From Rhizaria sp. SCN 62-66 (Eukaryota): a DNA stretch of 64,000 bases. The notes beneath the pieces are model-generated. The model was not told where the DNA came from, did not search any database, and saw nothing but the letters and a program-made list of their open reading frames with translations. Position 1 is the stretch's first letter; every line of letters begins with the position of its first letter. This document shows, in pieces, positions 811 to 63,600 of the stretch. A program made the position numbers and the translations under genes. The stretch spans positions 1 to 64,000 of the forward strand of contig MEDY01000255.1 of assembly GCA_001724265.1 (NCBI GenBank). Direction: 5' to 3'.

Positions 811-3261
811 ATGCAATACGTCGACGACGCACACCGCCATGCCCACGACGCTCGCTTCCATGCCGCCATCAGGCATGTGACAGCTCTGACGTCAGATCTC
901 GATGCTTTGTCTGAATTGTAGGAAGAGATTACTTTAAGTGAACACCGCGACGTTTCCTTGCTTCGCGAGAGCGGAGTTGTCCCACTGCTGCTGCAGTCGC
1001 TCGTGCTGGGTGGCGAAGCGACAACGGACGCACGCCTTGATCCTATCTTAAAAATGTTTCAGCAAGTCGCGCTCTGGCAAGGTGGCTGCAATTTACTTGC
1101 CGAGTATGGCGCCTTTGAACGAGTCTTTACTGTACTTCCTATTCTTGCTCATGATGAGAGCAAGAGCGTAGCCGCGACAATGTTTGCCTTCGCGGAGACT
1201 TTTATGCGCAAGCAGGAGCCTTCCATTTCTGCGAGGCAAGCTGTGTCAAAAAACTGTCTGGCGTTCTTGCGTGAAGTCGAGCGGTACTGTGTTGACTCAA
1301 CGGATTATTAGTATCTAACATATCACTCCAGCGCTCCTCTTGAAATGATAACGTAGCTCCACTCAGGGTTGCTTCCATTTAGGTCGGTGTCCGACTTTGT
1401 TCCGCTGCTACGCAGGATCATCCGGCATCTTTTGACGCTTTAGTCGGACTTCGAACCAGAATGGATGTTGATGCCCCGTGACTTCTACAAAGCTCTTCAT
1501 GGCGTCTTTATGTGTGGCGTCAGTGGCCAAGACCCAGATGATGCACAGCGTCGCGCGGATATGGCGGACTTCGCAGCCAGTGGCGAGTTTCAGGCATTGT
1601 TTAAGTTTCTGAGTTGGGATTTAATGATCCAATTTCTGAAATTGTTTGATCATGCCACGTTTGTCTGTGCCTTCACTCATGATCGCATCGAGTGCGTTAT
1701 CGACTGGATTAACGCGGCGGATCCTGACGACAATGATCCCCGAAGGCTTTTTAATGACTTGCTGGGGGTAGTTGCGCATGTATCAACCCAGCTTCCAGAG
1801 TTTGCCCGAAGTCTCTCTTCCGTGAGTAACTTTGATGTGATCTTACGCAACCTGAGCAATCGTTGGTGCATTTGGGTGGAAGATACCCCAAACAATTTGA
1901 TGATGATATTCTCCAGCATCTTGAACGCTGTCCCAAATAGGGCGCTGGCGGCGCAGCAACTTCTTGCGAACGGTGCAGTGAAGTTGTGCTGCAACTTCAT
2001 TATGTCTCATTTGTTGCTGGGCTTTAATTGTCAGTGTTTGAACTCAACGGACGCTGCACTAATTCTGCGCATGCTCCACTTATTGATCATCATTGGAAAC
2101 GCGTCGCCTGATCATGCAATGGTTGACAACGACGTTAATTTGCGCGAGAACCCCTTCGTGGTCGAGTTCATTGCGAGTCGCGGGCTGCAGGCACTTGATC
2201 TGTTACACTATGATGATCGTGTACTCGTTGACGGCGGGGGTCCTGTACTCTTTGAACGATAGCAACTGTGCTCACTACTGGCAACGCTGGGCGTGGTTGT
2301 GCCGGACACACCAGCAGCAGTAGAGCAGTGGCGCATCCAGGCTCACAAAGAATTGAATGACTTTGTATACCCAAACGAAGACTGGCAGTGTGCGTTAAAC
2401 AACTATATTTCAAGCCACTACTTCCAAAATAGCGGCTTTCTTCAGAAGTCTCAGTCTTTACGTCGACAATATGGCGGACATGTCCCTTCTGGAGCTGCCT
2501 TAACAGTCTTGCAGACCAGGGCGCGCGAGCTCATCCGTCGTGCGGCGACGAGCGATGTCGCGGCCGAGCATACAGCCTTTGATGAGCAGATGGCCCTGGA
2601 TGTGGTGATGACGATGCGTCTGTACAATGCACATTCCTCGTTGCCGGAAGTGTACACGATGACGATACGGCTCAATGATGAGAGTTTACCTGCCAACTCT
2701 GCCCATTTTCGCACTGCGGCTCGAAATACTTGTCTTGGTAGTTGCCTCCATACATGTTTTATACCACCCCAGCATGGTACAAATCCGACGTTGCCATTCG
2801 TCACATTCTACGGAGAGGATGGCGAGTCCACGTGCGCGACGACACCTCTCGTCCTACCAGACAGTGACATCGTTTACGGCGAGTACTCTCAGCCTGCGCC
2901 GGTCGGCACATCATCTCGTGCAACATTGTACCCCGTTGGTACTGTATTGTATTTTCCCTACACAGTGTATTCGCACTACCAACGCGATCAAGTGAACCCG
3001 CATACTATGCCGTGGTTCATCGTCTTCACACCATGTCCGACGGACTTGCTGCGCGGCGCCGTGCCCGTCGGCCGCGTTATGTCGTGCGTGGCGGGCGATG
3101 AGCCAGCACTGTACGACAGCAGTGATGAGCCTTTTGATGTCACTGTCTTGAAACACCTTGTAACGCGAAGTCACGTCGAGAACTGTTGCAATGGAAATCG
3201 TGTGGCAAAAGTATGTGTTTATTTTAGAAAGTATGTTGCCAAAGATGTCACACAAGTGTAA
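811..3261 (+). CDS. Intronless 816 aa protein, divergent importin-alpha/ARM-repeat-like N-terminal part plus an unrecognised C-terminal domain; needs 5 in-frame TAG codons read as sense
   Basis: ORFs 958..1311, 1465..2262 and 2293..3261 share one frame with an ATG at 811. The only interruptions are TAG at 919, 1309, 1354, 1441 and 2260, and the frame ends at TAA 3259-3261. LRESGVVPLLLQSL and LLIIIGN...ENPFVVEFIASRGLQALDLL resemble importin-alpha ARM repeats (from memory). Confidence 0.7.
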
Positions 3262-4601
3262 AGCGGCCATAACTCAGCTCGTGTTTTGTATCCACACTTG
3301 TCGCAGTAACAAAAACCTGCACATATATCGCAAGTAAATCTGCACAATCCAAGTCAACGCATGATATTCAGCTTTGAGCCTATGACTTCTGAAGTGCATG
3401 TACTCTGCTCCTCTGCCTTGAGAGTAAACCACAAGCCGCGCATGCACTCAAATGGCGTTGTGCGCTGAACACAACATGCCTATGGCGTCAACATGGCTAC
3501 AAAGTATTGCTCTCTCATAGTATGTTCCGCGCTATCGCTGTGTTTAACGCAATCAGCGTATGCTGTCACCCACAGATCACAGTGATATGACAAAATAGCA
3601 AAACCAGCCGACGTAACTGAACTGTATTCTTGGTGTGACTCTGAACGGGTTTGAAATCAATACTAAATCGATTTTCTCAACTCCAGCCGTCACCTCAACA
3701 GCAGCGTCATTACCAGCCCCGCCAGTTGCAATAGCCGCAGTCGTTGTCTGCGCGCAGAAACGGCGGCAGCGGCGGGCCTGCCGACGTGGCGTCGCCTCGC
3801 CAGGCTGTGGCGACGGCGGCACGCGTGTCTGTGGCTTGTGTGGGAGCAACTGCCGCTTTTGCTGGAAACCTTGGGGCTGGGCGACTCGCCGTTGCTGCTA
3901 CTGCTACTGTAAGTGGCACACGTTGACTGTAAGTCGTGCTGTTGCTGCTGTTGCTGCTGCTGGTGCGACTGCCGTTGACCCGAACCTTATTTGCAGGCGC
4001 TGTGACAGCATTATTAACTGCAACTGCAGTGACAGCAGCCGCAGTAGCCTCAACACTCCTGCCAGCGCTGCGTAGAACGCGTCGAGCTCCGCGGGCACGT
4101 GAGGCGAAGAACGTCAAGTAGCCAAACCGACAGCGGCAAGGCGTGGTTGCCGGCGAGTACATGGCGCGGCAGGCGCACATGCGGCCGACGATCGCCTTCA
4201 AGATGAGGCCGCAGTAGGGGAGGGGTGGGAACATCATGGGGGCCATCCGGGAGAAAAGGCTCTCGATCGGGGTCACAAGCGTGACGCTTGTCGCCAGCGA
4301 CAAATGTCGTTGTTCGTCTCCTTTGGCTTTGGAGGGCGGCCTACACTCTGCTCGAAACCATCTGCCTGTTTTCTGCTCGTAGAAACTCATTGATTTGTGA
4401 TTGGAAAATTCCTTGAATTCTTGTATTTCGATGTTAGGAACACAAGTTAACAACGTGATATATTGGCCCTAGAATGGCCGCAAGAACATAACTGCACTGC
4501 CGCAGCAAGCGAAGAGCATTGTGACACATCTTAGCATACTAAGAGCCAGGTAACCATTATGAATACAGAATGAGTATAATGAGTTCTCTTAATGGTATAG
4601 C

Positions 4602-7274: not shown

Positions 7275-7345
7275 TCAGAGATCTTGGTGGAAAAATGTGT
7301 CGTCAGCGCCGAAGCTCTTGAGTAGCAATGATTCGTAGTCATCAT
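7275..7345 (-). ncRNA. SNORD24: Box C/D snoRNA, U24/snR24 homologue, copy A
   Basis: Minus strand reads ATGATGA...TTGCTACT...CCACCAAGATCT-CTGA. Both guides complement the conserved LSU rRNA segment AGAUCUUGGUGGUAGUAGCAA, as in U24. Confidence 0.88.
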
Positions 7346-18317: not shown

Positions 18318-18414
<97 letters not shown>

Positions 18415-38660: not shown

Positions 38661-41600
38661 ATGGCCAGCGTGTCCGAGCTCGCGTCTCGTCTTGAATGGG
38701 CGACGGACGACGAGCTCACCTGCACTCTCCTCGAGTTGAGCACCGAAATCAACATGATGAATGAGAGCGACCTGACAACTCTGCACATCCCCACCTTCTG
38801 CGGCTCACTCGCCACCGCCATGCAGTCCTGGCAGGCGCCGGACGCAATCGTGCTCGCCGCGCGCGTCCTCACCGGCCTGCTTGACACCGCACCCGAAACG
38901 ATGGCCTTCGTGCACTCGCAGACGCCGCTCATCAACGTGCTGCTTGAGCACCTCAACTCGGTAGCGTACCCCGACGTCGTCGAGCTCGCAATCCCGCTGC
39001 TCGCCCGCATTGCCGCGCGCTCACCGCCCGTGCTTAACGCGCTGGACATTACCGCCGTCTACGGGTCCATCGACTTCTTCTCCGTCGTCACCCAGAGGGA
39101 CTTGTTGGGGCTGATCGTCGCGGCTGTGCACACGCACTCGCCGGTCCAGACGGTGACTCGCGCGCTACAGCTGCTGCCCATGCTCGCGCAGAAGGTGCCG
39201 CAGCGGCGCTGGCTGCCCACGCTTACCGTTAGTAGTATTGACAATAACTACAGCAACAACGAAGTGAGGAACAACGAGCGTAGCAATGCGACAGATGTTA
39301 GGGTTAGCTCAAGCGTCAGTTCAACTGCGAGTGTGCTCGATACAAAGAATGTGACTGAGAGTGGGTTACGGCTTGTCCTCGCGTCCGCACTGGCCGCGCA
39401 CAGTCGCCACAAGAAGCGCACTCGTCGTGTGAACACACACACTGCGACCGATCACGTCGACGGCGACAGCGACGACGAGTACGATGACGAGTATGATGAG
39501 GGCAGCAGCAGTGACGGCGACAACGACGCCACTGCTGCTCACGCCGCCAGTGCGAGCTCCGACTCCGCGGCGACGGAGGCCAACACGGCGGCTGTCGTCG
39601 TGTCTGCGCTGCTCAAGGCGGTTCTCAGCACCAAGGTCGTCAAAACCGCGTTTGCGACCGGTAATTACGCCACGCCGAGCTACACCCCGTCTCTGAGCTC
39701 GCTGCAGCGGCTGACTGGTGCTGCTTGTAACGCCATAAAGTGGTCCGATAGCGCTGCGAATGATGATGAGCGAAATGGTACTTTCATGTCGTGTAAGGGT
39801 GGCGACGTGACCGTGGGCGCAGCGACGATGGCGGCCGAGCTGGGTACTATGCACGGACTCACGGTCGCTGCGGCCGCTCGGCGCATGCTTGAGACCGTGG
39901 GCACGGTCAACGGGACAGTGCACACTGCTGATAAGCCCACGGCGAATACTGACAGTGTAGTGGCAGTGGCTGAGGCTCAGGGTAATACCTGTGCTGCAAT
40001 GTCTGACTCGGACGACAAAGCTGTTGATGCAAGTATCAAGTCAGACAACAGTCCTGTCGACGCACCCTCATCAGCGTCGAATGCTGACGATGTAAGCGCT
40101 CTGTGTAAGCACGTTTCATGGGGGAAGCTTGTGCCCACAGTCACTTTGCCCTTGTTCACACCTGTCACGAGTCAGATTCAGACGAGGCCGAGCAATGGCT
40201 CAACCACTGACACCGCCAGCGCCAGCGCCAACGCGATTTGTGCGGGTGTAGGTGTGAGTGGATGTGACGGTGACTGCGAGTTCAAGGAGGAAGAAGAGAG
40301 TCTCATCGACGGTTGCTGGGTGACGATGCGCCTCGCCGATGCAAGTACCCACGGAAATTGTGCGGGTGATGCATCTGTTCCTGGAGTTGCGCTCCGCCTG
40401 TTGCAGCAATACTCTCAGTCCCAGTCCCAGTCGCAGTCGCATGCACAGACACATTCACAGTTGCAGGCACAGTCAGTGGAGCTGCAGCCCGTGCCGGCCG
40501 TCGCGAGCGCGAGCGCAACCACTGACTGGGAGCAGCAATCTGACCTACAGCAGCAACAACAGCACGAGCAAGAGTAGCCAACTCACACGCGAGAGCAGAA
40601 GCGGCAGTTCCTGTCGCTGGCAGGCGACGCGCTGGTCACTTCTTTGACCCAGGCTTTCCCGAAGATACAGGGCGGCTTGGCTCTGGGGGACGGCGGTGGC
40701 TTAACTGCTGCTTCGTGCGAGATTGTCGCCGCACTTACATCCCCGTCATTGCTGCTCACGTTAAGCACTCTGTTTGAAACCGCACTGGCTCCACCTCTTC
40801 TCGCTTACAGCGACGATGCTCGCGCTGGCGCCAGCGACACGAACGCGATCGCGTTTGATATGTGCGACTCTACTGCCGGTGCGTCAAGTGCTGAGAATGA
40901 CGAGGCCGTACTTAACGCTTTGCTTCGTAGGCCGCGTACTTACACGCGCGGCACTTACACTCGCAACGGTACTTATACGAGCGACGTACTGAGTGCGCTC
41001 GCGCAACAGCACTTCGACAACAAATGTCATTGCTGCAGCCGTCGTTCTGATCACAACAATGACGATGTGACTTCTGCGTCAAAGGATGATGCTTCAAAGT
41101 GTCCATTGGCCCAGATTATCTTTCAGCTCGTTCGCTCACTGCCCCATCATCGCGCGTACAATGCCCGCGCGCTTGGCAGCAGCGCCAGTGCGAACCCCCC
41201 CGTGAGTCTCGCTCCCAACGTCGCCGCCTCTGTGGCGACCGCCGCCGCCGAGGCGTTGATGCTGGTGCTAACGACGACTGCGACGCCCGTCGTCACACTC
41301 CCTACGGGAGATCAGCCGCGGCCTCAACAACAACAACAGCAACAGCAGCAGCAACAGCAGTGCTCGCAGGCGTTGGGAGACGGGTTCGGCACTGTGGTGA
41401 CGGCTGTGACGCTTCCGCCGCCGCCGCTGCCGCTGCGGCCAGCGCCCGTCGCCGTCGCCGTCCCAGTCTCAGCCTCCGCGTCCACGACCAGTGTGAGCGT
41501 TACGAGCAATGACACGGCACGGGTCAAGTTGCGTGGCAGCGACAGTGGCAGCGGTCGCGACACTGACTCTGACAGCAATGGCAGTGGCAGTGAAGAGGCT

Positions 41601-44600
41601 GTTCTCTAGCACCTGTTGGCTCAGGCAACTGAGTACTACGGTCTTGCTCTGTTGTCCCCTCTCCAAGAAGAAGAAGAAGAAGAAGAAGAAGAGGAGGAGG
41701 GCGCTGGCGATGAGCGCGCCGACAAAAGCAACACAAGCGCTGAGGATGGTGCGACTAAGAGTGCTGCTGCCGCGACCGACATCAGTGCCGACAATGACAA
41801 CAAAGATGCTGCTGCAGATGGTAATGACGGTGCATGGGAGTAGCCGTCCCGCAACACGCGCAGTCGCACCCGCACTCGCGCGCTCAGTGTGCCTGCCACT
41901 GCCACTGCCACTGCCACTGCCACTGCCACTGCCACTGCCACTGCCACTGCTACCGTGACTGCGAACTCTAGTTCAGGCGGCAGCAAACAGAGCAACGGCG
42001 CAAGTAGCAACCGCGGGCGTGGCCGGGGCCGTGGCCGTGCCCGTGGCCGTGCCCGTGGCTGCGGGCGCGGTCGAGGCGGCAGTAACACTGCTAACGACGA
42101 TGACGCCAACGCTGACGCCCACACCGAGACCAAGGCAATCACTGGCGATATGGTCGATTCGCCCCCCACATCGCCCCCGCCCCCGCCCCCTCCTAGCGCG
42201 CGCGACATCCTTGTTGGCGCGCTGCAGAAACTGGAGAGGACGCCGCTTTTCACTGCCAACGAACGCGCCGCACTGGCGCGGCAGCATCCTCCGCTTTTTA
42301 GCCCCTCTGCGACGACGAAGGCGAGTGGATACACGTGCCAGCTCACGGTCGCACTTACACTGGCTAAGGGTGCTGTCACGTCGCTCACTTTCACAAACAG
42401 CTCCTCGAATACGAACAGTACTGCGAGCGGTGACAGTACCAGGTTCATTAAGCTCGAGTCCGTGCCTCTTGCTGTGCTGCAACAAGTTGTTGACGCTGCC
42501 CACGGTCACTTCGCAGCACTTATGTCTCGCGTAAGCGCCACCTCATCAATTGACAGCGGCAATGCTTTCCGCGTTGACTATAGTCTCAGCGGCTCGTGCA
42601 AGTACGATGTCGAGCTGCTTTTGCCTGCTAAGGTGTTTTTGCATGCGCACAAAGACACGTCACTCATCACGACTGAGACAATGACGACACCTGCAGCTGC
42701 ACTTTCAGCGGGCAACAGCGACGATTTTGAGACTCGCCCGAGCACATCTGTGTCTGTTGCTGCTGCTGTTGCTGCATCGGTGACTGCAGTCGAGACAGCA
42801 AGCGCGAATGAGTCTCAGTCATCATCGTCGTCGTCGTCGTCGTCGTCAGCGTCGGCATCGTCAGCTGCGGATACGTGTACTGCTAAGCGTGGCACGTACA
42901 CTTCACGGTCCGTCGTGCTGACGCGGCCACACGCACTCTTCGCGGTTCTCTCCGCACTTACTCACACAGTACTCACTTCTCCGCTAAGTACCCCGCTGCC
43001 AAGTCTAAGCACCCATCTGCCAGCGTCCATCAACTCAGTTGCGGCAGCGACCGCGGTTACCCACACTGCGGCGGCCGCGACCGTGGCCTCTGCGATGCTC
43101 ATCCCGCCTCTTGTCCCCAGTCCGTGGACTATGCTCACTCACTCACGTCTAAGTATCCCCTTAGACTCCGGTCACGCGAGCAAGCGTAGCGCGCAGCAGT
43201 CCGGGCTCGACAGCGCAGCGCGCGCGATTTTCTCGGTCCTGCGCCGCGCCCCCGGCCAGTCTCTGCGCGCTCCCAGCCACTCCGTGGTGACGCACATCCT
43301 GACGGTGCTGCCGCCGCTGCCGACGACGAGCGGCGCGGGCGCCAGCATCACTGGGCTCAGCGCCCTGAGCGCCAGCCTCAGCGGCGGCGTCAGCACCGCG
43401 GCCGTGGACAAGCTCTCGGCGGGGTCGCTGCTGCGCGCGCTCCTGCTGCCGCCGCTGGCGCTGCCGCTGACGTTCGCCGAGAAGGGGGCGAGCGTCGGCG
43501 TGGGGAGCCACCCGGCGGCGCTGCAGTCGCGCTGGCAGTGTAAGTACCTCGCGTCTAAGGGCCAGGGCGGCGCCTCACCCGGGACTACGCAGAAGACGCC
43601 GAGGTACCTGCAGTCTAAGGGTGTGGTGCGCCCCTGGGTACTTACATCTGCGCCTAGTCGTCTGCTCGCGGTCGCCGCGACTGTGCCCGCTGCTGCTGCA
43701 GCAGTGGCAGCGACAGCGTCTGCTGTGGCAGCTGTGGTGACTGTGGTTCTTGCCGCTGCAAATGACGCGGCGAAGGAGGCCGCCGAGGCAAGTGCGGCCG
43801 ACGCTACCCCTTCTAAGGCGGCTGATGCTGACCACGATGCTGATGGACATGCTGTTGATGCTGCTGAGGTTGCAAGCGCGAGCAATGACAAGGTTACTGC
43901 TTGCGTTGGTGTTGCGGCAGCTGTTGCTGCTGTAACAACTGCGGTCGCTTCCGTCACCGCTGCGACTGCGCTGTTGCGCTCTTTTCTCAACGAAAACGCG
44001 CCTACTAAGTATTGCATTGCATCATTTAAGGGTTTGACTTTGAGCGAGGGTGCGTTGTTTCTGCACTCTACTACTCCTTACATCGAAGGCGTTCTCACAT
44101 CTGTTGCCGACATGATTGCCGATATCACAAGCACGGAAGCTTATCTCAGTACAATCAGTGCTGATCTAAGTACTCTTGGCTTAGGACGCGCGCTTCAGAG
44201 TGTCAAGCAACAACTTTTGGTCTTGATCTCGATCACAACATCGATCGCTGCCCCACTAATTGCAACATACTTACCCAGTCAGACTGTCGCTGCTGCGGAC
44301 TTAAGCACTTCTTTGACTGACTGCGACACACGTGAGAATAGTGACATCCACGGAGCTGTGATATCACATATGCGTCGGTTTGGCGTTGCTTCAGCAATGC
44401 GGCGCTTGCACGCCTTTGTTCTGAGCGCTGCTGGTGATGACAACGGAAGTGACTCGATTTCTACCACTGTTGAGAGTGAACTATCTCGGAGTACAAAGGC
44501 AGCTGTGACTGCTGCTGCGAGTACACTCAGTATCTCCCTTGCGAGCAACAGCGTCGATTCGAGTGCAAGTGCCTGTGCCCAAATGGACGACACATGTGGC

Positions 44601-47600
44601 GAGAGCAGCATCGTTGCACGCCTTACTGCTGCTGCGCGGACACTAAGCCAAGCCGCATCAACTGCAAGTCAAGCATTGCCAGCCTCAACTGCATCACCTC
44701 TCTTAATGACTGACTGCGAGCAACAACAGCCTGTTCCGAGTGGCAATGAGCAGTCGAAGCTCAGTCAGTCCAGTGCGAGCTGGTGGCTCGGGACAATGCC
44801 GTCGGGCACTGACCCGCTCACGTCTTCTTCCAGTCTTGGTGCGCGCGATCGCAGTGCGAAGGATTCGACCAGTGCAACTCCTAACACGAACTGTGGAGTC
44901 GTGAGTGACTCTGAGCTCGTTGCGCTCAGCGAGATCCTCGACATTTTCTCTCTCACTGAGCCGAAGTCCCATGTGGATTCAAACTGTGCGGACATTCCCG
45001 GTAGCGAGGTGCCATTGCTTCCTTTAACTGCGTTTGCGCCGACCCTACACGAAGTGACGGAGTCTGGCGTGCTTGCAGCCCTCAGCTCATACCTCAATGT
45101 AAGTACCCCCTTGGACACGGAGGACCACGCACCCGTGCCTTTGTCGCTCGCAGCAGCGCGGGCCCGTGCGCTGTTAGCCGTTGCATGCGGCTTGCCTTTA
45201 GTGCCGAGCCCTTACATCACCACTGGTACTACTTGCGCTGATAACAAGAAGACTGGCAGCGAAGCTGAGACGGAGACCGGTGCAGCTTGGCTTTCCTTCG
45301 CTTCTCAAATGAAGGCCGCCACAGATCCCCTCTTCACCACTCAAAGTCAGGCCGCGCCATTTGCTTGCTCTGCGCAATTAGACGCAAGCAGTGTGCGTGC
45401 GCAGCGTTTACACGGTCTTAGCACGCTGTTCAAGTCTGCGCGCGCGGCCGCTGACTCGGCCGCGCTTCGTCTGGCGCCATTGCTGTCGCCCACGTACACG
45501 CTCGCACTCACATTGGGCTCAACGACGGCATCTCCTCTGACGACCATCACGTCGGTGGCAAACGCCCTCAACGACAGCAGTAGCGGCTCAAGCGCAAGCT
45601 GTAGCTCTGGTGCTGGTGCTGGGAATAGCATCGTCACCGTGAGTACTGGCGCTGGTGCGTTTGCGCTCTCACAGACACGCGCACAGTCCCTTACATGGGC
45701 AAAGCGGTACGTACGCCACATCCGCATGACTCTCCATCACACGAGTACAGGCTCTGACACGACTAGCCATGCAAGCTCCGCTGTCTCAGAGCCGTGCGGC
45801 TTAGCTTTCTCGACTGGCGGCTTAACATTTGTGCAGCTTGTGAGCGCTTTGTGGGACAAGACTCAAGTGACAGTCGCGCCATCACACCGTCTTCTTGCAA
45901 ACTACTTTAGCGCGAACGCTAACAACAACGCGAACAGCGCAAGTAGCGCCAGCCGCTATAGCTCAGGCTACAGCCTTTACTCGAGGCAATCGTACGGCTC
46001 TGGCGGCTATAGCGCGCAGTTACAGCCGCAGTGCCAATGGTCGCTCTCTGTCCTCCCCACAGCTGCCATTGGCGACAAGGCTGCTGACGTTCTTCGCAAG
46101 AGTCATACCGAGATCTCCAAAGTCTATCTCTACGATGTCAGTGCTTCCAACAGCAAGGCCACTGTGAGTACCTGCGGTGACCTGAGTGATCCTGCTGCTC
46201 TTGCCCCTTACACTGTCTCATGCCCAGCTTTTCCTTGTCACGCCACACCCTTAGACCTTGCTCTCATTGACAACGTGACTAAGGATGCTCACTGTGAACT
46301 TGATGCTGTCAATGGAAACGAACACTCAGAAGAGGGTAGTGCGATGCTCACGGTCACTGCTGCAGTTGCACGGATGCTAAGCCGCCCCTGGACTGTATAT
46401 TCATTCAAGCCGAATATGACAATGCTCACTATCGATGGCAACGACATCACAAGCACTGTTGGTAGTAGCCCCAGCTCGAGTAGTAACTACTCAGGCTACA
46501 TGAGCTCGTACGGTAGCCCGTACGGCTCTGCATACGGTCACACCCCCGCCCCGTCCGCCCTGTTCACTCTCGTCCCCACTGCCGTCGGCAGCGGCGCTAT
46601 CATCACTCTCAACAGCGGCGCGGGTGCCGGCACCCAGAGTCGTCGCCACTGCTCGATTCACGGCTGCCAGAGTAGCAGCAGTAGTGATAACGCCGCTGCG
46701 AGCGCGAGCGCTGCTGCATCTGAGAAGGCGGCTGCGACTAGCAAGCAGGTCAAGGCGTACTATAGCAATATCACGACGTCTGTTGCCCCGTACGATGTCT
46801 ACGTTGAGGGAGACTGGGCTGCGAGTCGCGCCGCGTCCAGAGACGGATGTTTGGCCGCTCTCGGTTCTTGTAAGGAAGTCACGGCGCAGCACCCCTGTAC
46901 TCTGTGCAGCGCCTCTGGCAGCACCACAAACAGCGCGGAGACGACCCCGGCTACAAGCGCCATTGCTAAGGCCAACGGCGGCAGCAGCGATGGTGAACAT
47001 GCGCGCAGTGTTGTGAAGATCGTCATCTCACAAGAGCAAGAGGAGGACGCGGTGATTCACAATGTGCTGTTGCCGCTGCTCCAGCTCGTGTCGAGGCTCA
47101 GTCGCGTGTTGACGAAGTGGTGGGAGTGGTACTTACCTGACGTCGTCGCGACGGTGGATCTAAGTGCCTCTAGCTCTTGCTCGAGCTCGAGCTCCAGTGC
47201 GAGTGCCGTCACTGCCGCAGCTGGCGGCAAACTCGTGAGCATTGCTCTGTTGCCGACAACCGTCACGCTGACGGCGCCGTCAGCTGTCAGGGGCGGTGGC
47301 GACGAGTTGACGACAAACAACAAGACCAAGGTTCCTGTTCCCGTGCCCGTTACTGCATACTTGCACTACATGCAAGAGACCGCCCCGCTGTCCAGCGTAG
47401 CCAGTGGAGGCATCTCCGCTTCGAGGCCCTGCTTTACGTTTGTTGCAGGCCTTGTTGGCCGCCCACGCCAGCTTCAGCCGCTGCCGTGCCCGTCTCCAGT
47501 CTTTGCGAGTATTGCGCACGCCCACAGCGGCTCAACCTCGAGCTCTAGCTCTGCTACTGCTGCTGGTACTGTCCACACTGTGAACGCAAGCGTTGATGTT

Positions 47601-50600
47601 GATGTCGGTGTTGTGTGCAGTGAAAGCGACTGTGAGCTGCCTCTGTTAGGCGCAATCGCTGCTTTATGGACGCTAGACCCAGTGGCAATCGCGTTCAAGC
47701 ACTTGCCTTCCTGGCTCGGCACCCTCACGCGTCTCAGCTCTTCGACTGCGAGTCAGCGCTCAGACGGCGGTGTAAGTGCCCCCTTGGCCGTCCCCGCGCT
47801 GCTGCCGCTGCTGCCGCTGCACGTGCGCTCCCGCCTCGCGCTGGCTTACCACACGGGCCCCGCTGCGGCGCGCGCCGTGGTTGCGGCAAACTCGGCGCTG
47901 TTCCGCAGTCAAGCCGGGTTCCTGCACCGCTACGTCAGCAGCTCGGTCAACCTGCGGGGTGCCCTGCCGAGGGAAGCGGTGCTGAGCGGTGGCGCGAGCG
48001 CGACGGCGAGGGCAAGCGTGAACGTCATGACCTCGACGGTGCTCAACGTGGATCTCCTCACTGCCTGCGCGTGCGCGAGTCTAAGTACCTTTCTCGCGCC
48101 GCCGCTTACTCAGCTCCATATCTTTCACAGCAGCCATACCTACGCCACCAGCACGAGCTCCATGACCACGGTGAGCTGCGCAACCACGCTTTCGTCCCCA
48201 TCACTCCCGCTGCATTTGCCGCCGGTATCGCTGCTCTTCGCCCCCACGCCGCCGCCGCCGACGCAGCAACAGCAACAGCAGGAGGGCGCCACGGGGAGCG
48301 CCGGGGCCGCGGGCGGCCGCGCACCGCTGGGCAGCGCCAAGGTGACTGTGAGCAGGCCGGCGCCGTTTGCGGACATGACCAAGTGGGCATGGACGCAGGC
48401 ACTTGCAGCTCTAAGGGGCGCGAGCACAAGCGCCACTGTTAGTAGCAATTCTAGCGCAAACGCGTTCACTCGCAAAGATGCTCTCGACATTGCAAGCACT
48501 GCTCTCGCGTACATGCACAACAACAACGCGAGCGCGAACTCCAACATTGGTTTGTCTGCCGGTGATGCTGGCTATGACGGTGTGTTGAGTCCGTGTGAGT
48601 TTGGCAATCTTGTGTCGCTACAGTACACGACAGTTCCTCTTCAAACACATGCTGGGACGAACCCCAATGACTTTCCATGGATTTCTCAGCTTCTGCACGC
48701 AATGGCATCGCCGCAGAATCTCAGCAGCCGTCTAAGTACCTGCCACAGCGAGAATGTAAGCACCCGTCACCCGCTGCTGTGGGCCCCACGGCCGCTGCAG
48801 GTCGTGCTCAAGGGCGTGTTTGCGGGCGAGGCCGGCTTTGGCGAAGGGCCCAACCAAGAGGTGCGCGCGCTCGTCGACTCCACGCTCGCCGCCGCCGGGG
48901 CCGGGGTGGGACTGTGGCGGCAGGACTGGGGCAGCGGGGCCCGCAACGGCAGCTGCCACAGCCAGGGCAACAGCGACTGCGAGAGCGACGACGACGGTGG
49001 CGGCGGTGTCGACCCTTATAGCGGCCGTGGTGATGATGGCGACATCGTCAATGGCGGTGCAGCTGTAGCTATGACTGATGGTGACCGTGGCACGACCGCA
49101 GACAAGGTTGCTGACTCCAACTCTGGCGCGAGCTCGAGCTCTGTGCTTGTGACGGACGCTGCGAGTAAGCAAGAACGCAAAGCGCAGGCTTTGGTTGCAA
49201 AGTCAGAGGTTTTGCTTACGTTTCCTTTACCGAACTCGCTGAGGAGCCCAACTTCAGACGCGTATGCACAAGATGCACGCGCATCCCTGTGTGTGCCTAT
49301 TAGCTCCAGTGCGCTGCTCATCTCTGCCATTGTCGCGATCGACACTGCGTATAGCCCAAACACACCCAGTTCTGGAGGGGCATCAGGCAGCCTCGCTTCT
49401 AGTTCTGGGTACGATAGCGCCTACCGTAATGACAACAACAGTGGCAGCTGCTACAGTAACAGCTATGTTTCAACGGCAAGCCTTAGCAGCAGCCTTAGCA
49501 GTAGCGCTACTAAGCACAGCTACAGTAGCTTACACAAAGACAACATTCGCCACAAACGCGAGAGCCTTCTGTTCCCGTCTAAGCGGGCTTTGCGACTGCA
49601 GAAGCAACAAGCGATGCTGCAAGCACAGCAACAGGCAGCCGCGCGCGCGGATTTGATGAAGGACGGCGATGACGCAAATGAAACTGCCGCAGATAGCAGT
49701 GATATTGATGATGCCAGCGCGGGCTACATCTTTGGTGGGATTGATGATATGTTTGGCTTCCGACCCAAGCGTAAGCTCGAGTCATCATCATCAGCAGCTA
49801 CTGCTGCTGGCGTTGGCGCCAACGATGCCGCTGTGAGCACGACTGATACTGACTCCGACTTCGATCTGGACTTTGATTCGGACTCTGACTCAGACATCCT
49901 CAAGAGCTCTCGTGTTGTCGTTAGCGACGATAACAGTTCGAGCCTCGATGGCGCGAGCAATCCAAGCGCTGATCTCAACCCGCGCCACCGCCGGCGTCGG
50001 CTTGCAGTTGCCGTTTCCAGCACTTACAGTTACCCTCCAGTTCCCGGCCGCAACGCCGGTGACGATGACGACGACGAGGAGGAGGAGACTGAGCAGGAGC
50101 ACCAGCTGCCTGCGGTGATATCGGCGCCAATTACAGCCACAGACCATGTCGCCACCGTGACTGACAAGCAGAGTGACGCGCCGGCCACTGCGGCCTCTGG
50201 CGCGGAGGCTGCGGCTGCTCTTACCGAGGCTGAGGCGAAGGCCAAGGCTGACGCCGAGGCGGAGGCTGAAGCTGAGGCAATCACAAAGGCCGTGATTGCA
50301 TCTGACTGCGCAATATCTGGAGTGACGGACGCGTTGAAGGCATTCTTCCAGTCGGCAGGAACTCCTCAGAGTAGCGCAAACAGTAGTAGCGTGAGCGGCA
50401 GCACGAATGCTACTGCTTGCGCTGGCGCCGGCGCTGATGCCAGCGAGGTCCCTAGCGCGAGCGCTAGTGCGAACAATCTTGATAGTACTGCAAGCTGCGC
50501 AAACTTTAGTGCAAGTGCTAATTTTGCGGACAGTTCTGATGTTAGTGCCCCAGATGTTGGCCCTGGCCTCGCGTTGACGAGCCAGCTAATGCGCATCATG

Positions 50601-53600
50601 ACCACTCTGTTCGCGCACACGGCTGCGTCTGCTTCAAAGGCTAAGCCTCTGACGCTGAACAAGAACGCTTTAACAGCCGCTGCCGCCGCCGCTGTTGCGG
50701 CGACGGCTGCGGCTGAGTCAGGCGCGGCGAACAAGAGTGATGTGGCTTCTATTTTCAACGCGGTCAAAATCTCTCCTGTGTTCACAGTCACTTACTCTAG
50801 CAGCAACGCGAACGCGCGCACCGACACAGCTAACACGCGCTCGGACAGTGCTCGCATGATGACTGTGAGTAGGGTGGCTCATGTGCCTCATGCAACAACA
50901 ACATCGCTTGTGGTCACAAAGAACGCGCTCACCATCACCGCAACATCTGAACATGATCGTCATGGCTCTAGCAGTCAAACCAGTCTCCCCACGATCACGT
51001 TTGTTCCCTACAGGACCCATAAGCTTGCCGCCCGCACTGCACATGACAGCAGCTCTAGTGATGATGGCGGACGCGATAATAACAGCGACACCAGTGATAC
51101 TGATGATGATTGCGGCTCACGCTTGCCGTTGCCTTTACTCTTGCCGCTCACATCCTCACGTGTTCCCCAGAACAACAACAACGACACTGACACGAGTACG
51201 CTGTCAAGCTCAGGTGTCCCTGCATGCGCTGTCATTTGCACGTGCTGCGGTGACGCAACCCCTTTAGTCGAGAATGGAGCGTCCATTCCGATCCGGCTTC
51301 ACTTCAGCGATACCCCGCTAGTCATTCCTGATATTACAGTCACTTCGACGACCCTGGCACGCGCGCGACCTCCAGGCTTATCATTCAGCAACAAAACCAC
51401 AAGTAACACTCTTGACACGAACTCTGGCGCTGTTTCGACACTGACTACGGTCACACCGATTAACACTGCTAGCCGTGTGTTCGCAACGTTCTTCGCGATG
51501 GTGATTGCTCGCGTCGCCAGTGTGCGTGCAGAGACACGGCGGTCACTGAAGATTCTCGCGAACGAAAGTCAATCCGCACGCGATAAGACGAAGGCCGCTG
51601 CAAGGAAGAGCAGGCGCGAAGCTGTTGTTGCATCGGAAGAGACGAGTCACAACGACGACAAGAAGGACGACAAGTCTGAGGCTGGTGAGGCGGTGAACGC
51701 AGACTCTGACTCTGTCGTTGGCACAAAGGCCGCTTCTAAGACGCGGGCTCGGACCCGGACTAGAGTTCGCGCGAGGGCGAACACTCAGATTGCGACCGCA
51801 GCGAACTCGAGGTCGAATGCCGGCGCAACGGCCAAGTCCCGTGCGAAGTCGACGTTGAAGGCTAACGCAGACGCTGCCTTCGAGGCTGATACCGAGTCTG
51901 AGGAGGAGGCTATTGCTGAACAGGACACTGGGGCTTTGAAGGTCAATCTCTTTGCCGACGCAGCGGCGAGCAACACGCCTGATGCCGCTGCTCCTGCGAC
52001 CGACGGGAACAATGATGACAACAGCAGCGATGACAGTGACAGCAACGTTGGAGACGACAGTGACAGCGACAATGACCGTGACAGTGAAACTGGTGAGGAT
52101 TGGTGGGCACAATGCTTCGGCTATCAATTCACTTCCACAGGTCTTGCTGTCGATGTCCAGCTCGCTGCGACCAACCCAATCAAGTCTAGCGACACCACGA
52201 GCGCCACGTTTTGTGAGCAGCCCGCCGCATCCACGCGGTCTAATCCGCGATCTAAGCGGGTTAACTCGCCACCGAAGAGCTCCCAGTCGGCTAAGACTGT
52301 TGCTACGAGCGAAACCGCGGTGTCATCTAAACCCCGCGTCAAGCGCACCAAGCCATCTGATCCTGGCAGCCAAACTCAGAGCAACAAGATCGAGGACTTG
52401 ACTTCGGAGCAACAGCTTGAGAGTCACCGCGCGCGTGTACTGCGTCGTTACGTCAAGATGTTCACTGCTCGTGCCCCCCGGTTGGCGGCAGCAAACACAG
52501 CAACGCAGACCCATGATTGTGTCAAGGAGGCGAACATGACGATTAGCTGTGCTCCCGAGTCAGCGCTTACCGTGGGCAATGTCGCTGAGCGGCTGACTGC
52601 CAAGGCGGCGAAGCTTCACCACTTGCAGTGGGTATCCTGGACTGACGCTGTTGCCGTGGCGATGTACGTCGCTGTGGCAGCGAGCAAGGCAATGGGCGGC
52701 ACAGCGCACCTTCGCTTCGGCCAGAAGCTCCCCTTTGCGGAAATTAGTCTGGCTAACCATGGCGTGCAGGTGCCGGCGAGCGTCACGCTGTATCAACCCG
52801 CGGTCAACAGTAATTCAAGCACGAACGCGAGTGGACTTTCCTATGCTGCCGCCGCCCTTGCATCTGTCTATAACAATAGTCACCCCAGCGGCGGCTCAAG
52901 CTCTGCACCGCGGTTTCCCTCACAAGACCCTCTTGTTTGCCGTTGCATGACGACTGATAAGGACAAGAATAGCTCTCCAAACACTACGAGTGTCGCAGTA
53001 CCTCAACGTGTTCGGACGTTGTTTTATGTTTCTCCGAACTTCAACAGCATGAACACGACGAGCCCAGGCAGTGGTATTGCACCGGTCACGTCAGACTACC
53101 AACAGAGCCAGAAGCAGCAGCGCGAGCTGCTACGGCAACTGCAAAAGTCACATGATGCGGCCCAGCGCCGCGCTGCACGCCTTGAAAGTAAGCCGCTGAG
53201 GCTTGACTTTAGGCCGAGTCTGCAAGCCATCGCTGCTTCTGCACTAACTCCTAACTCCAGCAATACTGACAACAACAATGCACCAGCTGCTACTACTGCT
53301 GCGTCTGGTTTGAATGCGACAGCGAGTGCGACTGCAGGTGCACCTGGCAGTGTTGCAGTTGTCACGGTTGCTTCTTGCGATCAGGTGGAGTTACCTCTGT
53401 ACCCTTCGTGGCGTCTTCCAACTGTACCGAGTGCAACAACATCTAGCACAGACATGTGGGGCGATACCACTATGCAGTCTAAGTACACCCTTGCACAAAT
53501 GCCACTGTGGCTCCGCGACCTGCGCTCTGACTCACGCCCTACACTCGCCAATAGCAACGCCAGCGCTAGTCTCTCGCAGTCAACGCAGGACTCGCAGTCG

Positions 53601-55757
53601 CTCGTTGCGTCCGTGCGGTGGTTTACACTGGGCACTGCGCTGGGTCGTGCGTGGGTTGAAGGGGCGCGGCTTAACTTGCCACTGTCGGAAGCGTTTTTTG
53701 CGGTGTGGCAACAGCACATTCGCAAGTACCACAGCAACGCGAGCACACCCATTACGCACACCAGTGACAATTACAGTGCCACCATTGCGCGTGCACAGTC
53801 ACTGGCGAACGCTGCCCGTGACTTGAGTCGCTTCGGCGCAACTGCGCTTCTCACGCAGACGACAACACCGTATTGCACGTCTTGTAGTGCTAATGCGAGT
53901 GACAATGCCGCGAGTGGCACTGGCGCAGGACCTGAAGTGCTTCGGAGCGTCTTGACTTCGGCACAAGCGGGTCTGCTAGTTCCTGCTAAGTCAGATTCTG
54001 GCTCCGCAACAGCAGCAGCAGATGATGTAGGTGTGACTCTTGGCGGCATGCCCTTGGATGACATTTACTTGCCCTTACTGCTGCCCGACCCTGAACCGAG
54101 CCCACGTGCTTCTAACAGCGCCGCCGCTGAGTTAAGTGAGTCTAGCGCCCGCGTAAGTGGTATTCCCGCCAGCGTGTTGTCCGAGTACAGTATGACTGCT
54201 AGCGAGCTTAGCGCCGCAATCGCGAGTGACAGTGTCGCTAGCGTCAATACCAGCAGTCTCAGCTCTGCAGCCGCAAGTGCAATTTCATCTGCCGGATCTG
54301 CGAACCGAAGCGCCGTGATCCCCGTAGACCAGACCCTAACATCATCGACTCTGCCGCTGTCCCTCGCCCTCACTCACAGCACGCTCTTCCGCGCAGGTCT
54401 GCCCGCCGCGAACATGCTCGCGCCGCTCACGCTCGGCTTTGCGCTCGCCGCGGCGCCGCAGGCGCTGTTGCTGCTGTCGTCCGCGGAGGCGGCCGCCGCG
54501 CTGGGCACGCTGCCTGACGACGACGACGGCGAGTTTGAGGACGGCGACGACGATGATGAGGACGAGGACGAAGACGAGGAGGAAGAGGGCCCACGCAGTC
54601 CTGGCGCAAGCGCCGTCAGCCCGACGAGCACGAAGTTAAGCCGCGCCCGCAGCAGTGCGCACAGTCGCCGCCGCAGCAGCAACGGCGGCACTGTTAGTGG
54701 CAGAGCCCGTCGTCGCAGCAGCCTCGGTGGCAACAGCCTTCCCGGCAGTCTCAACAACACGCCTAAGACAGCGAAAACAAAGTCTTTGGCGACCACCGCA
54801 TCCGCAACGAAGGCGGGCGCTGCGAAGCGTCGCCGCGGCGGCTACGACTTCTCCGTCGCCACTCTGGCCAAGGCCCTTACACTGCGGTCCCCTTACACCC
54901 TCCAGTCGCCGACGATCGTGGCCCTGCTCACGGTCCTCTCGACCTTCTCGGTTAAGCAGCAGCGCCGCTTCCTGCACTGGGCGACGGGCGTGCCGCGCCT
55001 CCCCCCGGGCGGCCTGGCAGCGCTATCGCCGCCGCTCACGGTTGCGCGCGCGGCCGCGACGGTGCGCGAGGTGCAGGAGGCGGAGGAGAAGGCCAGTAAG
55101 GCGTGGCGCGATGAGGCCGAGGCGCGGGCGGCAGCGACGCTGGCCGCGGGGCTGCAGCGGGCGCGGGCGAGCGCCAGCGCCAGCGCCAGGGCTGAGACTG
55201 AGGCTGAGAAGGCTAACGCCGGGGCTAGCAGTGACCACGATGACAACAAAGATGCTAGCCTAAGCGAAAAGTCGAGCGATGTCACAAGCAACGAGTCACT
55301 CCCGCTGCCGATGACTGATAGCGATTCCAACAGCAGTGCCAGCACAAACACTAGTGCTGACAATGAGGGAGAGGAACATGAAGAGCAGCAGACAACAACA
55401 GCAGCCCAAGCGGCGACCACAGAGGCGTCAGCAGAGTCTGTCACTGTCGCTGACAGCAGTGCGAAGACCGAGAATGAGACTCTGGCTGAGATTGCTGCAC
55501 AGGCTCCGGCTGATACGGACACGGGGGCAGCGATGGAGTCTGGCTCCGCGAGTGTGACTCTGACGCCTGTCGCTGTCGTCGTAAGCAGCACCGAGTCAGC
55601 AGCGAAGGACGAGGATGAGCCCACAGTGTACTTGCTGCCGACAGTGATGACGTGCACGCACATGTTGCGTTTGCCTGACTTAAAGACCGTTGCGTTGGTC
55701 AAGGCCAAACTCTTACGTGCAATGGCTGACACTGACGCGGGATTCCAGCTGTCTTAA
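38661..55757 (+). CDS. Giant single-exon HECT E3 ubiquitin ligase of the TRIP12/Ufd4/UPL3 type (~5,698 aa); needs 3 in-frame TAG codons read as sense
   Basis: N-terminal ARM region (PDAIVLAARVLTGLLD, IDFFSVVTQR) and HECT motifs FAGEAGFGEGP, LNLPLSEAFF, FLHWATGVPRLPPGG, LPTVMTCTHMLRLP, GFQLS-TAA. Four ORFs share one frame and are separated only by TAG at 40575, 41607 and 41841. Confidence 0.88.
41893..41950 (+). repeat. (CTGCCA)n hexamer repeat encoding poly(Ala-Thr)
   Basis: About 9.5 tandem copies, seen directly. Confidence 0.9.
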
Positions 55758-60623: not shown

Positions 60624-63600
60624 TTACGAGTGCATCTCGCTGACTAGGTCGGCGTAGGACCCGACCGGCTCCGCCGCCCTGCCCGCCGCCGCAGCGGCCG
60701 CGGCCCTGGCGGCGGCCGCGGCCTTGCCCGCCGCGCCGCCGGCCACGCGGCCCTGCTCGAAGCACGCTGCGAGATCCGCGGGGAGCTCCTCCCCGAGCAA
60801 CAGCAGACTCAGCTGGGCGCGCGCAGCAGTGGCCACGGCAGCAGAGTCGGCGTCCCAGGCCGTGTCGCCCACCAGAGCCACCGCGCGCCGCAGCCGCTCC
60901 GCGCCGGACAGGGTTAAGGGGGCACTTAGACCTCCACTGTTGGCGTTGTTGACGATCGCAAGGGGCCCGAGGCCGAGGTCGGCGGCGGAGAGCGGGGCGA
61001 GGACCGTGAGCAGCCCCGTCGCGGTCATGCGGCGCAGCTTCGGGTAGCGGTGGGTCAGGAGTGCCAGCAACACGCGCAGCACGTCGACGAACGGGTGGCG
61101 CGCGGGGCTGGGCGCGGCAGACTCGGGGAACGCGGCGGGGCTGTCTAAGGGGGTACTTAAACCCTCGAACGGGTAGGCCGCGGTGCCCGGCAGCGCAGCC
61201 AGGCAACGAGGCGTGCGCCTAGTAGTTGTCGCAGCAGCAGCAGCAGCAGCAGCAGCCTGGTCATTGGCATCACTGGCACTGGCACCGGCACTGCTGTTGA
61301 ACACAGGGGGGCATGCGTTGGCGGAGAGCGCGGCCAGACTCAGCAGCACGTTGATGCCAGCCATGGTCTTGGGCACGTTGTTAGTGTTGCCGATCTCGGC
61401 GTAGACGCGCCTGTACACGGCGTAGGAGTAATAGTAAATCTCCTCGCAAGGGTCAGAGCACGAGATCACAACACTCTCCTGCTCCTGTTCCTGCTCTTGC
61501 TGCTGCTGCTGTTGCTGTGCCTGCTTGAATGCGGCGGCCGCGTTGCCCACGGCTCCGGGGCTGGGCGTCAGCACCCCGTGCGCGTGCAGCAGGTGGATCG
61601 TGGCGAACACGGGCGTTACCACGCGCGGGTCGCCGCGGTGCCGGTGCGCCAGCGCCAGCAGTCCCCACACCAGCCCGGCTGCGGGCGTCAACGGGTACGC
61701 CGCCGACAGCGCGGGATCAAACAGCAGGGGCGCGCGCACAGCCAGTGGCAGAGAGACCGCCGCACCGACGGGAGTACTACCGACAGCGCCCGCCGCCGCC
61801 GCATCCGCACCCGCGCAGCTGGCGAAAAGGCCGAACGCGGGTCCGTACTGCGCGAGCTGTAGCGCCTGCGAGTCGGGGCCCAGGATGACGCCGCCCACGG
61901 TCAGCGCCACATCAGCGAACAGCGCGGAATCGAACTCAAGCCGCGTCGCCTCCAGCGGCGTATTCGCGCTCACATTCGCACTCGCACTAGCGTTGTCATT
62001 AGCGTTGACCCTCTCAACGACCTCGTAGGGCCAGTGCAGGTCGGCGGCAAGCTGCTTCGCAACCGCATCTACGTTCTCGCCGAGCATGTTGACAGCCTCC
62101 CAGACGCCGTTGCCGCGGTCGACGGCCGCCTCGTGGTGCTCGTCCGTGGCGGCCGCGAACTCGCACAGTGCCGCCAGCGAGGACTTGAGGGTGGACTCGG
62201 TGAGACCGCCGGCCGAGAGGGCGAGGCCTGAGAGCAGGGCCGGCCGGTAGAGCACGAGCGGAAGGAGACGGGCGGCCAGACTGAAGGACATCGCGGGGGT
62301 CGACCAGTCCACCGTGCTTGCACTCGCGCTCGCACTCGCGTCAACAGAACCGGAGCTAGAGCTAGAACTAGAGCTAGAACTAACGGCAGTGGAGCTCGAA
62401 GCGGCGGTACACTGATTCTGAGTACTCGCGGTAGCACTGCTGCTGCTGCTGTTGCCAGAGGGAGCAAGGTTGATTGGCACGACCGCGTCCTTGGTGGCAT
62501 TGCGCAAGACCTCCTCTTGGAGCGCGCCCATCACGGTGAACGTGCTCAGCAGGTGCTTGTGGTGCGGGAACGGCGCCGCTAAGAGCAACAGCGAGTGCAG
62601 GGACGACAGAGCAACACCGCGGACGCGGTCGAGCTTTTCGCTGCCCTGCTGCAGCAGCGCGCGCGCGACGGTCAGGAAGACGACGGGCAGCAGCGGCAGC
62701 GAGTGGCCGTGGGCGATAGCGCGCTCGCTCACAGCCGCATCACTCTCGTTACCACCCGCACTCGCACTCGGAGCGCTCGTGCTCACAGGCGGAGCGCTTG
62801 CGCCCACGGTCGCAGTCCCAGCCGCGTCAGCGCCGCGGAGCGTGACCGCGAGCACGTGCTTGAGGCCCAGCACGGCGGCCTCGCGGACCCATGAGCCGAC
62901 GTCGCCTCGCGAGTCCGTCGCGTAATCATCAAACGCGCTCAGAAGCGTGTTGATGATGGCCACTGTCACTGCGGGGACACTGTCCACACCAGCGGCGGGT
63001 TCTGAGGGGCTGCTTGGAGGCTTGCGCAGAGCGATTGAGAGCGGGACATTGTACTTGGCCGTCTTGCCAGTACTCACGGCTGCTACAGCGCCCGCGGCAG
63101 TCTTAGTCGCGGTAGCAGCAGCAGCAGTGGGATTTCCGCTGCGGGCGGCGGCGGTGACCGCGGAGGCGGCGGCCAGGCGCGCGCGCGAGGCTGCTGCGGC
63201 CGCGGCAACGCCGCTGCTCCCACTACTGGCATTGGCCATGGCGGCGGCGATGAAGCGGTTGTACCCACTGGCGGCGGGCGCAGCAACAGGCGCAGCGGCA
63301 ACGGGGGTGGCGGGGGTCTCAGAGGGCGCGGCAGCTTGGGTGCCGCTGCTCAAGTCAGCGCGAGTGTCGCTCGCAACCGCGGCGTTCGCGAGTGCGAGCA
63401 GCTTGTCGGCCGGGATGAGCGAGTCCCACTTCGGCGCCCACTTGGTGTCCAAGGAGCACTTGGTCGTCAGCGTGACGTAGAGCTGCGCCAGCGCCTGCGC
63501 CGCGCACTGGCGGGTGCCCGGGTCGGCCTCGCACTGCGGCGAGACCGACCGCGCCAGCGCAGAGAGACACAACAGAGACAGGTCGCAGGTCTTGACGTCC

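Follow-up and report, generated by a model that had tools for sequence, protein, structure and literature searches.

The question raised by this locus is whether a nuclear genome has turned UAG into a sense codon while still ending its genes with UAA and UGA. The DNA in question, hereafter the window, comprises the first 64,000 nucleotides of contig MEDY01000255.1 (Rhizaria sp. SCN 62-66, assembly GCA_001724265.1), and has the properties of eukaryotic nuclear DNA, with a GC content of 0.47-0.66, either strand carrying long open reading frames (ORFs), and spliceosomal introns that are short and AT-rich. Two unrelated genes on its plus strand carry in-frame TAG codons: gene 1 (811..3261), encoding an ARM/HEAT-like repeat protein of 816 codons with five of them, and the gene of a TRIP12-like HECT ubiquitin ligase (38661..55757), an intron-free ORF of ~5,700 codons with another three. 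We propose, with about even confidence, that UAG is decoded as an amino acid in this organism and not as a terminator.

When only TAA and TGA are read as stops, the ORF at 796-3261 (+) runs through TAG codons at 919, 1309, 1354, 1441, and 2260, and the ORF at 38496-55757 (+) through TAG codons at 40575, 41607, and 41841, the respective start codons being ATG 811 and ATG 38661. These are the positions and the frame reported in an earlier inspection of the letters of this DNA, here called the sequence-only reading, which first proposed the variant code, and neither ORF holds an in-frame TAA or TGA. Over the 13 modelled pieces of coding sequence (CDS; 13,073 codons), the internal stops amount to eight TAG, no TAA, and no TGA. 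The comparison between frames is equally one-sided. Gene 1 has no TAA or TGA in frame against 33 and 40 in its two off-frames, together with five in-frame TAGs against three and five. The N-terminal part of the HECT ORF (hereafter the HECT N-part) has none in frame against 27 and 53, with three TAGs against three and seven, whereas the rest of that ORF lacks all three codons in frame, its off-frames containing 119 and 219 TAA plus TGA, and 16 and 76 TAG. In gene 1 and in the HECT N-part, the in-frame TAG counts thus match those of the off-frames, while TAA and TGA are absent where 27 to 53 of them occur off frame. Both ORFs are also free of frameshifts over their 19.7 kb (2.4 kb plus 17 kb). 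Selection appears to keep them free of TAA, TGA, and frameshifts, and the simplest reading is that TAG is translated.

The HECT ORF gives further support to the coding nature of the sequence on both sides of its TAGs. Under a codon model trained on the TAG-free ORFs of the window, the four segments bounded by TAGs score as coding (+189.6, +70.7, +31.1, and +1386.3), with off-frames at -12 to -2003. The segment that precedes the first of the three TAGs matches the family TPR_TRIP12_N (E = 1.7e-4, 22.1 bits, below the Pfam cut-off of 33.7), and a HECT domain is found at the far end of the ORF (E = 2.1e-19). An N-terminal part of this kind followed by a distal HECT domain would correspond to the architecture of TRIP12/UFD4-type ligases.

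A different source for such codons would be recent gene inactivation. In that case, gene 1 would be on its way to being lost from a large multigene family, the ligase would have lost its N-terminal part and would start downstream, and the TAGs would be ordinary nonsense mutations. Some features of the two genes agree with this: no other gene of the window has a codon bias as weak as that of gene 1 (0.064 bits per codon, vs 0.2-0.48 elsewhere), whose GC content at third codon positions (GC3) is 0.55, many of the 68 representatives of its family are intact, and the HECT TAGs all fall within 423 codons in the first fifth of the ORF. However, judging from codon content, random single-base nonsense mutation would produce TAG in 44-46% of cases in gene 1 and 33% in the HECT N-part, so that the probability of eight TAGs out of eight is 6.2e-4 to 7.2e-4, and chance nonsense mutation is an unlikely source of the eight codons. 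Stops arise from about 4% of random substitutions in sense codons, and decaying genes also gather indels; on such general grounds, eight nonsense hits without any indel would not be expected, and the 2.4 kb and 17 kb of sequence show no frameshift, TAA, or TGA while the off-frames hold 27-219 TAA plus TGA. In addition, the sequence is identical in samples of 2015, 2017, and 2025. A C-to-T decay of a repeated gene, of the kind caused by repeat-induced point mutation (RIP), is ruled out by the dinucleotide indices of this gene (TpA/ApT 0.63; (CpA+TpG)/(ApC+GpT) 1.23), which carry no RIP-like signature. Taken together, inactivation is a distinctly unlikely origin for these codons.

That the TAG codons are real bases is supported by independent assemblies. 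In run X2 (2025), contigs covering 97-2258 and 2234-3077 have 0 differences to the window, and the same applies to the contigs covering 72-1267 and 1366-3076 in run X4 (2017, from another study). No alternative letter appears at any TAG in these comparisons. TAGs 919..921, 1441..1443, and 2260..2262 are covered by contigs of both runs, while 1309..1311 and 1354..1356 are covered, among the pieces listed, by the X2 contig 97-2258 only. A JGI contig of 2.3 kb (L001), the sole match of a scan of metagenome contigs with the alignment of gene 1 and its homologue P0005, is identical to 1366-3692, and so includes TAGs 1441 and 2260. The same codons can be recognised in a protein collection, where ORFs bounded by TAG recur on 4-7 contigs: P0027 and P0206 end at TAG 1309 (1 and 3 contigs), P0007, P0204, and P0205 end at TAG 2260 (4, 2, and 1 contigs), and the exact 638-aa ORF 38661-40574, which ends at TAG 40575..40577, is present on 4 contigs. 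There is no strain variation over gene 1 (0 differences), the members of its protein clusters differing only in the start that was chosen. The five TAGs of gene 1 and TAG 40575 are therefore reproduced in other assemblies. The exact look-up gave no match for the ORF flanking TAG 41607..41609 nor at TAG 41841..41843, and four of the five HECT-derived ORFs searched in this way had no match in the collection.

Besides base-call or assembly errors, an artefact could take the form of unrecognised introns, and the window itself provides a reason for caution. The helicase/IBR gene has a 192-nt intron (23513..23704, minus strand; GTACGT...CAG, GC 0.33), with the IBR domain encoded in the downstream exon. 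This intron keeps the frame and contains an in-frame TAG at 23591, which was consequently dropped both as a sense codon and as a terminator, and which made it necessary to check the other TAG sites for introns. Since its length is a multiple of three and it has no TAA or TGA in the frame of the gene, the intron mimics coding sequence as soon as TAG is read through. The introns of this organism are AT-rich and ~170-270 nt long, with a G/GTACG donor and a YAG acceptor. They recur in the gene models, and RNA-derived contigs (runs X9 and X11) contain the spliced joints left by two of them (12649-12825 and 12919-13154), which bears out the earlier claim that the organism contains introns. Nothing similar surrounds the eight TAGs. 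Their local GC is 0.46-0.61, without intron signals or AT-rich stretches, no GTACG-type donor lies within 470 nt upstream of the HECT TAGs, and both the alignment of homologues through the sites and the codon scores place them in coding sequence, not in introns. Apart from TAG 23591, an artefact could still draw on the missing matches for TAGs 41607 and 41841 and on the frame change of the PI4K gene across a (CAG)30 repeat, which represents at least one oddity of the assembly or of the gene. Against six codons reproduced elsewhere and homologues that align through the sites, an artefact is largely refuted and keeps hardly any probability.

The ends of the genes complete this picture. For 15 confident gene models, rebuilt independently of the earlier reader, the stop codons are 11 TAA, 4 TGA, and 0 TAG, the same tally that had been obtained before, so that TAG is the true CDS end in 0/15 models, within the small sample offered by this window. 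TAA predominates (11/15) despite a GC3 of 0.55-0.80, even though TAA use drops and TAG use climbs in eukaryotes overall as GC3 increases (PMC9348620). All 15 stops are followed by a purine at position +4, with TAAG at 8 of the 11 TAA stops, and termination in this organism seems to follow a strict signal of four bases. At the in-frame TAGs, position +4 is occupied in turn by G, T, C, T, C, C, C, and C, a purine in 1/8 (Fisher p = 3.3e-5). Because the pyrimidine share at +4 after other NAG codons is already 0.44-0.66, this contrast shows that the TAGs have no termination context, and not that they have a special readthrough context.

Several observations weigh against UAG as a sense codon and have to be set beside the above. 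TAG occurs in only two of the 15 genes, with eight codons in total and none in the other 13. Its density is 5/816 codons in gene 1 and 3/1,061 in the HECT N-part, vs 0/4,637 in the rest of the HECT ORF and 0/6,406 in ten other CDS, so that it is absent from ~11,000 codons outside two TAG-rich stretches; such clustering would be unexpected for a sense codon in broad use. The distribution of precursor codons (CAG, GAG, AAG, TTG, TCG, TGG, TAY) was rejected as the cause of this clustering (no log10 P above -6.7). The least used sense codons likewise show enrichment in gene 1 and, to a lesser degree, in the HECT N-part, as shown by ATA (4.9 and 1.9 per 1,000 codons, respectively, vs 0.6 in the rest of the HECT ORF and 0.8 in the ten other CDS). 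This enrichment is less extreme than that of TAG, and a general rare-codon bias accounts for only part of the clustering. Moreover, many paralogues of gene 1 are called as uninterrupted proteins of 700-880 aa with TAG as a stop, and, if they share the organism, they hold no TAG at all. TAGs 41607 and 41841 come from this one assembly, since the look-ups of four of the five HECT-derived ORFs were empty, and the pyrimidine excess after the TAGs does not stand out from the NAG background. Finally, the lack of TAG at 15 gene ends is weak evidence, with p ~0.005-0.035 under a usual TAG share of 20-30%, a share that is our own assumption.

Part of this pattern would be explained by gene-specific suppression under the standard code, where TAG terminates elsewhere and the two genes either depend on leaky near-cognate readthrough or yield mostly proteins cut short, for instance an N-terminal piece of the ligase with 638 residues. 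The extreme clustering of the TAGs, with none in ~11,000 other codons, is what this would predict, and a mixed or unusual residue would be tolerable at sites that are all variable. C at position +4 provides the leakiest stop context in eukaryotes, and a pyrimidine follows seven of the eight TAGs, C five of them, even though this excess is not significant against the NAG background. If three to five leaky stops had to be passed in succession, however, hardly any full-length protein would result, yet 4,637 codons are kept open downstream of the last TAG of the ligase. No stimulatory RNA structure is found in the 90 nt downstream of any of the eight sites (z-scores of -0.32 to +1.34; pseudoknots lie outside the model), and site-specific recoding elements find no support in these same values. 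Nor would suppression restricted to two genes predict a complete lack of TAG among 15 terminators. We regard gene-specific suppression as unlikely, and return to UAG as a sense codon for the question of which residue it would encode.

The homologues of gene 1 are the source of information in this respect. This protein matches no Pfam family, and its alpha-solenoid look-alikes are leads only. A profile search of 1.84 billion representatives retrieved 68 proteins at E ≤ 0.001, 28 of them at E ≤ 1e-30, counted at 50% clustering (P0005-P0073 range). The family is large and uncharacterised, and each of the 10 clusters that were looked up carries no name and comes only from ENA or Logan metagenome assemblies. 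Several N-terminal fragments of the family stop at about the same alignment column, which may reflect a shared intron. Gene 1 and P0005 share 32% identity over 670 columns (E = 1e-60), in an alignment that is ungapped at TAG sites 42, 216, and 489 and shows good matches right up to the codon. In an alignment of 37 rows (gene 1 plus 36 of the 68 matches), four of the five TAG sites fall in ordinary occupied columns, whereas site 187 (TAG 1354) is a gap in 32/36 rows. The amino acid consistent across homologues that a reassigned codon should face is not found: the four usable columns are variable, with compositions such as N6 K4 R3 C2 D1 at TAG 919 and A7 T7 L3 E2 K2 M1 G1 at TAG 2260, which is a further point against UAG as a sense codon, and TAG is present in no conserved gene of the window. 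Within these limits, the mean BLOSUM62 fit at the four sites is highest for N, S, E, D, K, and Q, and far lower for Y, L, and W. Q, E, K, and S lie within normal ranges at the TAG columns, while for Leu 96-100% of the 80 true Leu positions in gene 1 have a higher score than three of the four columns. Four variable sites constitute weak evidence, yet they argue against UAG being read as Leu.

The same columns bear on the possibility that the stops are removed from the mRNA by editing, for instance of the A-to-I type, which would convert UAG into UIG, read as Trp. A-to-I editing of premature UAG codons takes place in some filamentous fungi, and a few otherwise intact genes with several premature stops, all of them TAG, resemble that system. 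The listed pieces of the RNA-derived contigs X9 and X11 include none over a TAG site, which leaves room for editing; X11 also contains unspliced sequence, and the spliced joints of a neighbouring gene in both sets of contigs indicate that mRNA of the organism is present. Among the 20 residues, however, Trp has the poorest fit to the four usable columns (summed score -10.4), with no homologue having W there, and editing would not explain the absence of TAG from the 15 terminators. To our knowledge, nuclear mRNA editing of the A-to-I stop-repair kind is not known in Rhizaria. We consider editing very unlikely.

The claim of the sequence-only reading, UAG as sense with UAA and UGA as stops, thus stands in part. 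The reality of the TAGs, their coding context, ORFs free of TAA, TGA, and frameshifts, 0/15 TAG ends, and the missing +4 purine all speak for it, whereas a consistent amino acid and a broad use of the codon are lacking. According to our proposal, UAG would not be used to end translation, and ribosomes would insert an amino acid at it, while termination would fall to UAA in most cases and to UGA in the others, with a purine after either one. This would involve a tRNA reading UAG and an eRF1 recognising UAG poorly; the 64-kb window contains no tRNA gene, hence no tRNA with a CUA anticodon, and no eRF1 gene. As the eight TAGs among 13,073 codons occupy only variable, mostly polar positions in weakly biased or disordered sequence, we read them as the product of a young or inefficient, perhaps ambiguous, reassignment, in which TAG would be tolerated only where the residue hardly matters. 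The inserted residue may be a polar one such as Gln, Glu, Lys, or Ser, with Leu and Trp fitting poorly. If this is true, the very low and patchy use of TAG could show an early or inefficient stage of reassignment. On the practical side, standard gene callers cut the proteins of this organism at TAG, as in the public fragments P0007, P0021, P0027, and P0203.

As for the identity of the organism, close relatives with a name are lacking for most proteins of the window. A search with the tubulin cofactor D protein retrieves only itself and one match at E = 1e-5, a scan of genome contigs with this protein gave no match, and neither did a scan of viral contigs. The window contains no rRNA, the only Rfam match being SNORD24. 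The placement comes from the PI4K-beta gene, namely from its last exon (148 aa, PI3_PI4_kinase domain), whose best matches, among those listed, are metagenome proteins with 60-65% identity, the best named one being Bigelowiella natans (61% identity). In a tree of 44 rows, built with 43 of the 120 listed matches (every match whose organism name could be read, and the best of the unnamed ones, with no metamonad among them), the exon falls in a 21-row clade (SH-aLRT 99) together with all four named rhizarians of the tree, and apart from alveolates, plants, and Amoebozoa. From this grouping, given by one gene and a short sequence, the organism is probably, if tentatively, a rhizarian.

The stretch 700-3400 is found in runs labelled as bioreactor, wastewater, activated-sludge, and fuel-cell metagenomes, where 16 rows from 11 studies have at least part of it and 4 rows have half or more of the sampled words. 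Over window positions 1-20000, the contigs of X2 and X4 show 0 to 1 differences each, the samples being of 2015, 2017, and 2025 and from different studies, which suggests a clonal, widely distributed wastewater organism. Since its sequence hardly differs between wastewater and bioreactor samples taken between 2015 and 2025, the organism could be sampled again. A junction of 2886 with 3047, which leaves out 160 nt in the 3' part of gene 1, is present in DNA contigs of X2 as well as of X4. The shorter side of this junction measures only 30 nt, and its depth is near that of the main contigs. No repeat accounts for the skip, which could be a deletion allele or a graph artefact.

The remaining features of the window concern mainly the gene ends counted above. 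The 11 models ending in TAA comprise gene 1 and the HECT ligase gene, where the stop is followed by A in both cases; a 113-aa ORF (6091-6432); a TFIIS-ribbon gene with three exons (end at 12034); a three-exon gene on the minus strand (end at 12565); a gene at 14379-15107; the PI4K (PI4K-beta) gene (end at 21959); the helicase/IBR gene on the minus strand (TAA at 22953-22955); a papain-family protease on the minus strand (end at 30412); a gene at 33221-33784; and the tubulin cofactor D gene. TGA ends a three-exon membrane protein gene (end at 4602), a five-exon gene (end at 38183), a WD40 gene, and a bromodomain gene. A doubtful extra ORF on the minus strand (3710-4468), also ending in TAA, was left outside the 15. 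TAGs 5146 and 37460 are both intronic, and TAG 18473 was rejected as a terminator because it is out of frame with the coding sequence that the PI4K gene has beyond the (CAG)30 repeat. This repeat (18323-18412) separates two different coding frames of the PI4K-beta gene, that of 17921 before it (+75.9) and that of 18189 after it (+398.8), and in the read comparison 18314-18425 is marked as a skipped repeat. Since a pure triplet repeat cannot shift the frame, the change would reflect a misassembled repeat, a genuine frameshift, or some feature that escaped recognition.

The composition of the window is not uniform, as the GC of the first 12 kb (1-12000) is 0.47-0.49 vs 0.55-0.66 beyond, and the GC3 of gene 1 is 0.55 vs 0.62-0.80 elsewhere. 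Within this part, the region 6500-10500 is gene-poor, with lower GC and repeated units; the peptide strings MMTTNHCYSRASALTTHFSTKISD and QMMTLSFPILSTMTR.RKPAQLCLARHWSKSDY each appear twice in its ORF translations. It contains the SNORD24 match (7271-7350, minus strand), contigs from poly(A) libraries cover parts of it, and the region resembles a snoRNA cluster or host gene.

The reassignment of UAG with UAA kept as a stop has been described in very few nuclear lineages (PMC5304391, PMC11687900), and the listings of full-text literature searches include no report of UAG reassignment in a eukaryote from wastewater or activated sludge. One of the closest cases is exLh, a member of the Sainouroidea (Rhizaria) in which UAG encodes Leu: 384 UAG codons were found in 71 genes, at conserved Leu sites, and the gene ends were 56 UAA and 15 UGA (PMC5304391). 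exLh resembles our organism in having only UAG in frame and only UAA and UGA at gene ends (56/15 there, 11/4 here), as well as in an uneven distribution of UAG between gene classes, and both would belong to the same supergroup if the placement by the single PI4K exon holds. In contrast, UAG occupies conserved Leu positions in exLh, whereas here the eight codons lie in 2/15 genes, none of them at a conserved position, and Leu fits poorly; exLh dwells in insects, while our organism comes from wastewater and bioreactors. It is possible, though we find it doubtful, that an uncultured, cercozoan-like rhizarian common to many wastewater plants freed UAG independently of exLh and reads it as a polar amino acid, at an early stage in which the codon has gone from gene ends and has come back only in unconstrained positions of weakly biased sequence. 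Such an organism would record, in nature, the stage of stop-codon reassignment known as 'codon capture' or 'ambiguous intermediate'.

In the fornicate Iotanema spirale, UAG encodes Gln, with 204 UAG codons in 126 genes, gene ends of 104 UAA and 15 UGA, and Gln at 22/28 hyperconserved UAG positions (PMC5304391). The common features are UAG as sense, UAA as the predominant stop, and UGA as a stop, and Gln is among the residues compatible with the columns of gene 1. However, Iotanema is an anaerobic metamonad, and its UAG codons include conserved positions, of which none carries TAG here; the PI4K exon of our organism groups with Rhizaria (in a tree without metamonads). Phyllopharyngean ciliates are a third case, where UAG is read as Leu or Gln, suppressor tRNAs have been identified, and UAA is the preferred stop (PMC11687900). 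They share with our organism the reassignment of UAG only, the preference for UAA, and their discovery in metagenome-derived genomes. They differ in their widespread use of UAG, which is very rare in the GC-rich 64 kb described here, with its spliceosomal introns and no tRNA gene. Fungi with A-to-I-edited UAG codons also have a minority of intact-looking genes with one or several premature stops that are only TAG, but the Trp resulting from editing fits worst here, TAG is a normal terminator in those fungi vs 0/15 in our window, and our organism is not a fungus. The stop pattern thus agrees with that of the known UAG-only codes, while the density and placement of UAG do not. If UAG as a sense codon is true, this organism would represent a further, probably independent case, and a data point on the uncoupling of UAG from UAA.

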